This document shows positions 8,761 to 9,505 of a stretch of 64,000 nt of DNA, in pieces; position 1 is the stretch's first letter, and each line of letters starts with the position of its first letter. The DNA is from an uncultured Rickettsiales bacterium (GTDB taxonomy: Bacteria; Pseudomonadota; Alphaproteobacteria; Rickettsiales; CAYLHV01). The position numbers and the translations under genes are program-made. The notes below the pieces were generated by a model. That model had not been told where the DNA came from, ran no database searches, and saw only the letters and a program-made list of their open reading frames with translations. Where the stretch lies: positions 234 through 64,233 of the forward strand of contig CAYLHV010000010.1 of assembly GCA_964383745.1 (NCBI GenBank). Reading direction: 5' to 3'.

Positions 8761-8953
8761 TTCTGACATAATTTACCTGCGAGCGCAGAATCTAGAGTGT
8801 TTTTTTGTCCTAAGTTAACATCATCCTAAATTCCCGAGGATATGGGCACCGTAGATTGGAATAGCTCGAGGTTGTTTTTTGGAATGGGTATATTGAGAGA
8901 ATTTAAGAGCATTATTTGGTAATCTGTTAATTTGGAATAGTCCTTCTTGAATT

Positions 8954-9182
8954 TTGGTAGTGGGATATGTGAAATTCTGTGCAGAGTTCTTTCTTTGTGA
9001 TAAAGATCCTAGTATTGTGCAGTTTTTGGAACAAGGATCGGAAGAAGAGAAGATGGTATTTGAGGTTGGTGCGATGCGTCGTGAGCATGGTGATTTCGTG
9101 AAGTTTCTTAACAAAAGCATCGGAATCAGAGCTTGCTGGGGAAGTAGGAAGTTTCTCAGAAGGTTGTGAAATTGGACTATAA
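8954..9182 (+). pseudogene. frameshifted copy of the 59379..59630 small ORF
   Basis: Aligns with 59390..59630. It lacks the ATG/RBS region and has one extra base (CTTAACAAAAGCATC versus CTTATACAAGCATC). This shifts the frame so the tracked ORF stops at 9169 instead of the conserved GGA CTA TAA stop. Confidence 0.5.
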
Positions 9183-9356
9183 ATTTACAGGGTCATTATT
9201 ATTTATACCCTCCATATTTGCTGTAAAATTTGTGATAATCCAGAGTTATTTTTCCTATGGAATGTCACATAACTTATGGATTGCCGCGCTTTCAGCTCGC
9301 AATGACAGAGATTGTTAGATTTTTAATTATATACATATTTCATTTTAGAATAGTCC
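9173..9356 (+). repeat. composite repeat 'R', full copy 2
   Basis: Same string as 2997..3170, with core GGATTGCCGCGCTTTCAGCTCGCAATGACAGAGATTGTTAGATTTTTAATTA. Ends in CATTTTAGAATAGTCC, as does copy 3. Confidence 0.85.
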
Positions 9357-9505
9357 AACAAGCTTTGTTAATTTTACGCAATCTTAAAGCAAAAATCTTC
9401 GATTCTTCTAGCATAGTTTCTGAACTCTCAAAAAAACATCCTCGAGCTATTTGAATCTACAGTGCCCATATCCTCGGGAATTTAGGATCATTTTAGATTG
9501 TGGGG

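Follow-up and report, generated by a model that had tools for sequence, protein, structure and literature searches.

We analysed a 64,000-nucleotide stretch of DNA (hereafter the window; GC content 37.9%) from an uncultured Rickettsiales bacterium (assembly GCA_964383745.1, contig CAYLHV010000010.1, positions 234 to 64,233), focusing on a 662-bp intergenic element at window positions 8825-9486 that is bounded by long terminal inverted repeats (TIRs). As described in an initial annotation, which was made from the sequence alone, the element lies between two convergent genes encoding ankyrin-repeat (ANK) proteins. The upstream gene (6322..8760, plus strand) encodes an 812-aa protein (Pfam Ank_2, E = 1.7e-96) and its stop codon is located 64 nt before the element. 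The downstream gene (9506..10774, minus strand) encodes a 422-aa protein (Ank_2, E = 1.9e-60) and ends 14 nt beyond the right copy of ATCAT, a 5-bp direct repeat that brackets the element.

Inverted-repeat arms and their boundaries

The arms of the inverted repeat (IR; 8816-8883 and 9428-9495) are 68 nt long and lie 544 nt apart, with matches at 61 of 68 positions (90% complementary). The initial annotation had counted 54 matches in 58 positions between 8823-8880 and the reverse complement of 9431-9488, and we obtained exactly the same result, with mismatches at 8850, 8858, 8859 and 8873. Local alignment of the intergenic region to its own reverse complement gave a score of 101, compared with 25.3 ± 4.6 (maximum 44) for 200 dinucleotide-preserving shuffles. 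The inverted repeat is real and far beyond chance.

Next to the arms the similarity ends. The inner flanks (8884-8957 and 9357-9427) show no relation to each other, whichever way they are oriented, and the similarity between the outer flanks, including the 3′ ends of the genes, is no better than chance, as a fraction of 0.22 of the shuffles reached or exceeded the observed value. The arms are therefore sharply bounded, inside and outside, as is expected of transposon ends and not of the tails of paralogous genes. The idea that the arms are conserved 3′ tails of paralogous convergent ANK genes was rejected on the same outward comparison (P = 0.22) and because the two flanking proteins show only generic repeat similarity to each other (26%); both have Ser-rich C-terminal tails. 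An inverted repeat that continues inward in decayed form was rejected as well, since the inner flanks are unrelated.

A palindromic assembly artefact does not explain the arms, because they are only about 90% identical. In addition, a Logan contig (L001, run SRR15237806) contains the same right arm joined to the ANK gene; it spans the region from TyrS through the downstream ANK gene, crosses the right TIR and ends at window position 9381. The contig stops 47 nt beyond the inner edge of the right arm, within the element, and neither at an IR edge nor where the repeated core ends. Low coverage, a polymorphism or a further repeat copy could account for this break. Between the arms, no identical run exceeds 27 nt, which would not suffice to collapse an assembly graph built with 31-mers (k = 31 assumed).

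Inverted repeats around a few hundred base pairs are also the layout of an inverton, in which a site-specific recombinase would flip the 544-bp interior, and the end of the Logan contig inside the element could be taken as a further hint. However, this contig keeps the orientation of the window for 47 nt beyond the inner edge without a break there, the arms have diverged by 8–10%, and no invertase or recombinase was found in the window. Moreover, the segment faces the 3′ ends of convergent genes, where inversion of a promoter would have no obvious target. The repeats of invertons are typically short, much shorter than the arms here. We consider an inverton very improbable.

We assign a similarly small probability to a functional RNA or DNA structure, that is, a long hairpin that would serve as an insulator or terminate transcription in both directions, or a transcript forming double-stranded RNA between the convergent genes. 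The predicted RNA fold of 8790-9520 is very stable (-240 kcal/mol, z = -10.4) and a T-run closes each arm if it is read in the same direction as its neighbouring gene, both of which would suit such a role. In contrast, the seven arm mismatches, as read from the sequence, are mostly true mismatches with few G-U wobbles or compensated pairs, and homologues from which covariation could be judged are lacking. The only Rfam match in the window at gathering thresholds is a tRNA at 15215-15301, with none in the element. No terminator-like site was predicted in the arms, and a stem that closes a 544-nt loop is no terminator. A motif within the arms, CYCGAGGWTRT, occurs twice per arm; it was not used, as it was derived post hoc and about 11 pairs are expected by chance among all the 11-mer pairs of an arm.

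Direct repeat, termini and the IS1380 family

Directly outside the start of uninterrupted IR identity, the pentamer ATCAT is repeated without mismatch and in the same orientation, at 8820-8824 and 9487-9491. The initial annotation had seen no clear target-site duplication, and this pair is a candidate for one; a 5-nt direct repeat at two fixed positions has a probability of about 0.003 in the window. The ATCAT pair delimits the element at 8825-9486, with TIRs of 59 nt that match at 54 of 59 positions (left 8825..8883, plus strand; right 9428..9486, minus strand, identical in the Logan contig). Both termini read 5′-CCTAAATTCC, or 5′-CCTAAATTCCCGAGG in a longer reading, and the decamer CCTAAATTCC occurs exactly twice in the window, at these two termini.

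The termini were then compared with those of the IS1380 family of insertion sequences (ISs). The comparison was prompted by a resemblance to one member, ISEcp1, and was checked on real copies and published descriptions. The left inverted repeat (IRL) of ISEcp1 is CCTAGATTCTACGT, and this IS is flanked by 5-bp direct repeats (PMC6061673). In the copy upstream of blaCTX-M-15 on plasmid pC15-1a (L011), the right inverted repeat (IRR) reads CCTAAATTCCACGT from the outside. The element termini match the outer 10 nt of this IRR at 10 of 10 positions and those of the IRL at 8 of 10. IS1247 ends in CCCACATTTCCCAAGT and CCTGCATTCCCCAAGT, and the element agrees with its IRR at 11 of 16 positions.

IS1247 and further family members were retrieved from plasmids by tblastn and their ends determined, giving a collection of 14 termini. 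ISSsu5 and IS1678 end in CCTGAATAATTCATAC, while ISPa33, ISBdi2, ISSp1, ISMex4 and a Rhizobium member have ends of the form CCCG...TT(A)TTC/TCTC. The last five, which are alphaproteobacterial or Pseudomonas members, carry CTAG on both sides, and GATAG stands on either side of the IS1678 copy in L014. Together the termini give a family signature of 5′-CC-Y-R-N-ATT(Y)C (CCT-R-N-ATTC in the ISEcp1/IS1247 branch) with duplications of 4–5 bp. The element has termini of this type and a flanking repeat of this length. A random decamer of the window would match any of the 14 termini at 10 of 10 positions with P = 2.5e-5, or 2.2e-4 when a slack of ±5 nt is allowed.

The element thus resembles the IS1380 family (ISEcp1, IS1247, IS1678, ISSsu5, ISPa33, ISBdi2) in its CCTAAATTCC terminus, the family signature and the 5-bp flanking repeat. 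It differs in that family members are about 1.6–1.7 kb long and have a transposase. ISEcp1 measures 1656 bp, against 662 bp for the element and about 254 bp once the passenger segment at 8958-9365 is left out. As the initial annotation had noted, there is no transposase: the internal open reading frames (ORFs) have no Pfam match, and neither the element nor the 64-kb window contains such a gene or a remnant of one by Pfam or tblastn. Specifically, no transposase, integrase, recombinase or invertase domain was found in 37 non-ANK ORFs from across the window (Pfam, E ≤ 1e-8), 11 of which match no Pfam family. The Pfam families that were found are all housekeeping ones and include RNase J, NusA, IF-2, IleRS, GpsA, MgtE, L20, LspA, GrpE, YchF and SodB. 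Likewise, tblastn of the ISEcp1, IS1247 and IS1380A transposases against the window returned only noise (best E = 0.23). Since a DDE transposase of IS1380 type is absent, the element is at most a derivative and not an IS of this family.

Passenger segment and dispersed repeats

Inside the left TIR lies a 74-nt subterminal sequence (8884..8957), and inside the right TIR a second one (9366..9427); they are unlike each other and have no other copy in the window. The segment between them was described in the initial annotation as a frameshifted small ORF plus one R repeat, R being a family of dispersed repeats in the window. Our alignments agree with this and refine it. In a blastn search of the element against the window and in pairwise alignment, 8958-9356 is 84% identical to 59407-59818. 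That second locus (59379..59818, plus strand) contains an intact ORF of 83 aa (59379..59630) followed by a long form of the repeat (R-long). In the element the ORF has become a 5′-truncated, frameshifted pseudogene (8958..9159, plus strand), which lacks the first 9 codons and is shifted in frame after about codon 53; phmmer relates the two ORFs at 7e-18. The pseudogene is followed by a nested R-long (9160..9365, plus strand; core 9217-9332). The cargo is a segmental paralogue of the 59.4-kb locus and not a decayed transposase. No trace of the 59-nt TIRs was found in the alignment of the 59.4-kb copy, which has no TIRs at its flanks.

The 83-aa ORF is an orphan. It has no Pfam match and no homologue but itself among 5.8 billion proteins, and its only paralogue in the window is the frameshifted fragment in the element; it is not related to the tails of the ANK proteins. 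Its final ~7 codons, and the stop that follows them, fall within the left end of R-long, as if the repeat supplied the C-terminus.

The R family has at least eight dispersed copies in the window, with a core of about 115 nt that contains TTGCCGCGC(C/T)TT..GCTCGCAATGAC. Besides 9217-9332, its members are found at 2984-3167, 47486-47602, 45382-45494, 36085-36177, 59644-59792, 11740-11798 and 30211-30245. The R-long forms (2967-3249, 9160-9365 and 59609-59818) are about 200–280 nt long and have imperfect TIRs of their own. In the copy at 9160-9365 these are short and read AAGGTTGTGAAATTGGACTAT against the reverse complement of 9350-9365, AAGCTTGT-----TGGACTAT; the copy at 2967-3249 has a 43-nt IR (arms 2967-3009/3207-3249). 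The R repeats look like a separate family resembling MITEs (miniature inverted-repeat transposable elements), usually located just downstream of genes.

The junction between ORF and R-long is identical at 8.9 kb and 59.4 kb, whereas the flanks of the R-long at 3 kb differ, so ORF and R-long were duplicated as one unit. How this unit came to lie between the TIRs allows two routes: the passenger was captured between IS1380-type ends or was gained later by recombination, and either is possible. A direct repeat, TTTGGAATAGTCC at 8931-8943 and TTTAGAATAGTCC at 9344-9356, could mark the recombination junction of the passenger. By chance alone, some 0.25 matches of this kind would be expected, and the TTTAGAATAGTCC copy both closes, on the 3′ side, the stretch that the element has in common with the 59.4-kb locus and belongs to the right end of R-long; we leave this repeat unexplained.

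This setting also raises the question of whether the two arms belong together at all. They could be two independent solo copies of a dispersed repeat of about 60 nt, or the outer IS ends of a former composite transposon, that stand inverted around native DNA. In line with this, short dispersed repeats abound in the genome and form head-to-head pairs: at 36081-36181, between the genes 35339..36010 and 36231..37040, two R cores form a near-perfect hairpin with 44-nt arms (98% complementary) and a 13-nt loop. The interior of the element, moreover, is paralogous to native sequence without TIRs. However, both arms stop at the same inner position after a T-run, which independent truncations would not do, and the ATCAT repeat brackets the pair of arms as one unit. 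In addition, the 64 kb hold no other copy of the ~60-nt repeat, compared with at least eight for the R family. We regard an origin from separate copies as improbable.

Origin of the element and its genomic context

Taken with the sharp boundaries, the region is, in our judgement, probably a solitary, old, non-autonomous element of IS1380 type, similar to a MITE or to a mobile insertion cassette (MIC). From the sequence we infer an origin by transposition and a mobilising enzyme of IS1380 type. In such a scenario, a transposase of the IS1380 family acting in trans would have bound both 59-nt TIRs, and the 662-bp element (8825-9486) would have been inserted into the spacer of the convergent ANK genes with duplication of the 5-bp target ATCAT. 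The site before insertion would have read ...AACATCAT followed directly by TTTAGATT..., with a single ATCAT, and the interior would consist of the passenger, flanked left and right by some 70 nt of unique subterminal sequence. The long and nearly identical TIRs imply an inverted duplication of a single IS end at the time the element was formed. With the arms now different at 5 of 59 positions and no partner in sight, the element is probably inert today.

Several observations weigh against this interpretation, and the first of them concern the ends. ATCAT is palindromic save for its central base, which allows a second reading in which the IR goes on outward with 4 of 5 matches, followed by 3 of 4 matches in the next 4 nt. 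The initial annotation had spoken of weaker pairing a few bases outward; this amounts to 7 of 9 matches and arises because ATCAT is nearly palindromic. The two readings of ATCAT, as a duplication and as an extension of the IR, are not fully separable. The similarity to ISEcp1 stops after 10 nt, and no family member is similar beyond the first 10–16 nt. Furthermore, the TIRs measure 59 nt, compared with 14–33 nt in the IS1380 members examined. The match to the family was also noticed post hoc and calls for correction over about 30 IS families. Even when corrected in this way, a coincidence of family-type ends with a duplication of family length appears unlikely.

The other observations of this kind concern copy number and host. 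A second copy of the TIR is absent from the 64-kb window even when up to three mismatches are allowed, which bears out and extends what the initial annotation had reported. Scans with exact 19–21-mers of the TIR, which detect near-identical copies only, revealed no true copy in 185,579 GTDB species genomes (the source genome is not among them, since the element's own arms were not found there), nor in IMG/VR and two JGI metagenome scans. The 19-mer hits in genomes and viruses arose by chance within coding sequence (‘IPEDMGT’ motif), and their similarity ends with the 19-mer itself. When the complete element was compared by blastn with 72,556 plasmids and 50,697 phages, no match was found. Six-frame peptides of the arms gave none at E ≤ 10 among the 5.8 billion proteins, a weak test as the window's own arm ORFs are absent from that set. 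The source organism has no known IS1380 transposase and the window no cognate IS. An empty site for comparison is also lacking, the nearest relative having only 62% identity in TyrS.

Much of this would suit a non-mobile local inverted duplication, in which template switching or aberrant repair placed an inverted copy of some 60–68 nt at a distance of 544 nt, leaving a long intergenic hairpin whose IS1380-like ends and ATCAT repeat are coincidental. The repeat is unique in every collection searched, the window lacks a transposase, and the outward matching of 7 in 9 positions absorbs ATCAT as a near-palindrome. Yet the terminal decamer matches an IS1380-family end at 10 of 10 positions (P ~2e-4 even with slack), and this match coincides with a direct repeat of exactly the duplication length of the family. 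The boundaries are sharp on both sides, and there is no source sequence besides the arms themselves. We therefore consider a local duplication unlikely, although it has more in its favour than the alternatives discussed above. The initial annotation had likewise allowed for a mere structured hairpin if the TIR were unique and no IS were related to it. A related family does exist, by the 10-nt terminal match only, and no second copy of the TIR was found.

Returning to the non-autonomous element of IS1380 type, we compared it with the known classes. The initial annotation had proposed a MITE or a defunct IS; sharp boundaries, ATCAT and IS1380-like termini speak for this, while neither a second copy nor a partner was found and the cargo did not turn out to be a decayed transposase. 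By the criteria for MITEs (PMC11578231, after Delihas 2011), the element has small size, TIRs and no transposase, and its direct repeats (DRs) are ambiguous; as to mobility, seen as copies at different loci or insertion polymorphism, the window contains a single copy and none was found in the collections searched. The MITEs of Orientia tsutsugamushi (mISOt1/2/4) and MITEPye1 of Paracoccus yeei are likewise small, intergenic and without transposase, with TIRs and DRs and the potential for a long stem-loop (PMC2575882, PMC11578231). In Orientia, however, there are 201 copies and cognate ISs in the same genome (PMC2575882), whereas here we see one copy and no partner. MITEPye1 is a low-copy element, with 1–3 copies per chromosome (PMC11578231).

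The size of the element is a further difference. At 662 bp it is larger than typical MITEs, for which the nested passenger accounts. E622, a MITE of Pseudomonas syringae, is also a non-coding element of about 0.6 kb with unusually long TIRs near effector-type genes, but it belongs with another transposase family and is present in multiple copies.

MICs, which are bracketed by TIRs, lack a transposase and show a target duplication, are a described class (PMC3913671). Their layout is found here too, with two IRs around a passenger, no transposase nearby and a target duplication, the last being ambiguous. MIC231 of Bacillus cereus and the mic elements with qnrD/qnrS2 have the same arrangement of IRs, passenger and missing transposase. 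They differ in that the passenger of MICs is a functional gene, whereas here it is a truncated, frameshifted orphan ORF with a repeat, no cognate IS was identified and mobilisation in trans is only presumed. MIC231 itself derives from IS231 of the IS4 family, not from IS1380.

Members of the IS1380 family are able to mobilise non-IS DNA as ‘transposable modules’ (TMos; PMC9330008). The TMos of ISPme1 and the transposition units of ISEcp1 resemble the element in that IS1380 ends move adjacent non-IS DNA, which offers a possible route for the passenger. They comprise a complete IS with transposase, one authentic IR and a degenerate surrogate IR, unlike the element with its two near-identical 59-nt ends and no IS body. 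We found no IS1380-derived MITE in PMC9330008, PMC11578231 or the titles of the other literature matches on IS1380 and MITEs.

One could go further and regard the element as a bacterial ‘Pack-MITE’, in which IS1380-type ends captured and moved the fragment of the orphan ORF together with R-long in a deep-branching, ankyrin-rich intracellular alphaproteobacterium. We give this stronger version only a slim chance. If it held, transposase-less cassettes would shuffle gene fragments around effector-type ANK loci, and the unusually long 59-nt TIRs would be the hallmark of a native IS1380 subgroup of this lineage that is as yet undescribed. The more general interpretation as an IS1380-type element would mean that a transposition system of this type formerly operated in a Rickettsiales-like lineage that is ankyrin-rich and poorly sampled, and that such ends can enclose a passenger composed of part of a gene together with a second repeat. 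Both MITEs and cassettes without transposase are familiar, also in Rickettsiales, and the element is most likely an ordinary genomic fossil and not a new kind of system, though the combination of long TIRs with a passenger of gene fragment and MITE-like repeat is mildly unusual. Its value is modest and concerns the annotation of endosymbiont mobilomes and the build-up of repeats beside effector-type ANK genes; it opens no long-standing question. For method, it illustrates that a 5-bp target duplication, when nearly palindromic, can be mistaken for weak pairing that extends an IR outward.

The source organism is an isolated lineage. The best named matches of its TyrS (12411-13628) are Rickettsiales and other alphaproteobacterial metagenome-assembled genomes. 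The window has an exceptional density of ANK genes, with at least nine at 6322-8760, 9506-11632, 45586-47484, 54264-59072 and 60190-64000. A C-terminal module that is not ankyrin is common to six stretches in five of the ANK genes, and the nucleotide repeat families D14/D16 encode the ‘...SLDDAQFALDFVNYDY...’ of this module at 46672, 47248, 55260, 57501, 58815 and 61963. The ANK proteins with this common module may be a family of secreted effectors.

Two further repeats were noted in the window. At 112-408 and 2608-2904 there is a 297-nt direct repeat (91% identity, copies 2.5 kb apart), which adjoins the ORFs 568..1884 and 1850..2932, both without Pfam match, and lies just upstream of the R-long at 2967-3249. 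Finally, the gene for the 812-aa ANK protein contains a perfect 15-nt tandem duplication (AATTGCAAAAATGTT twice, at 8454-8483), which is translated in frame as ‘IAKML IAKML’.

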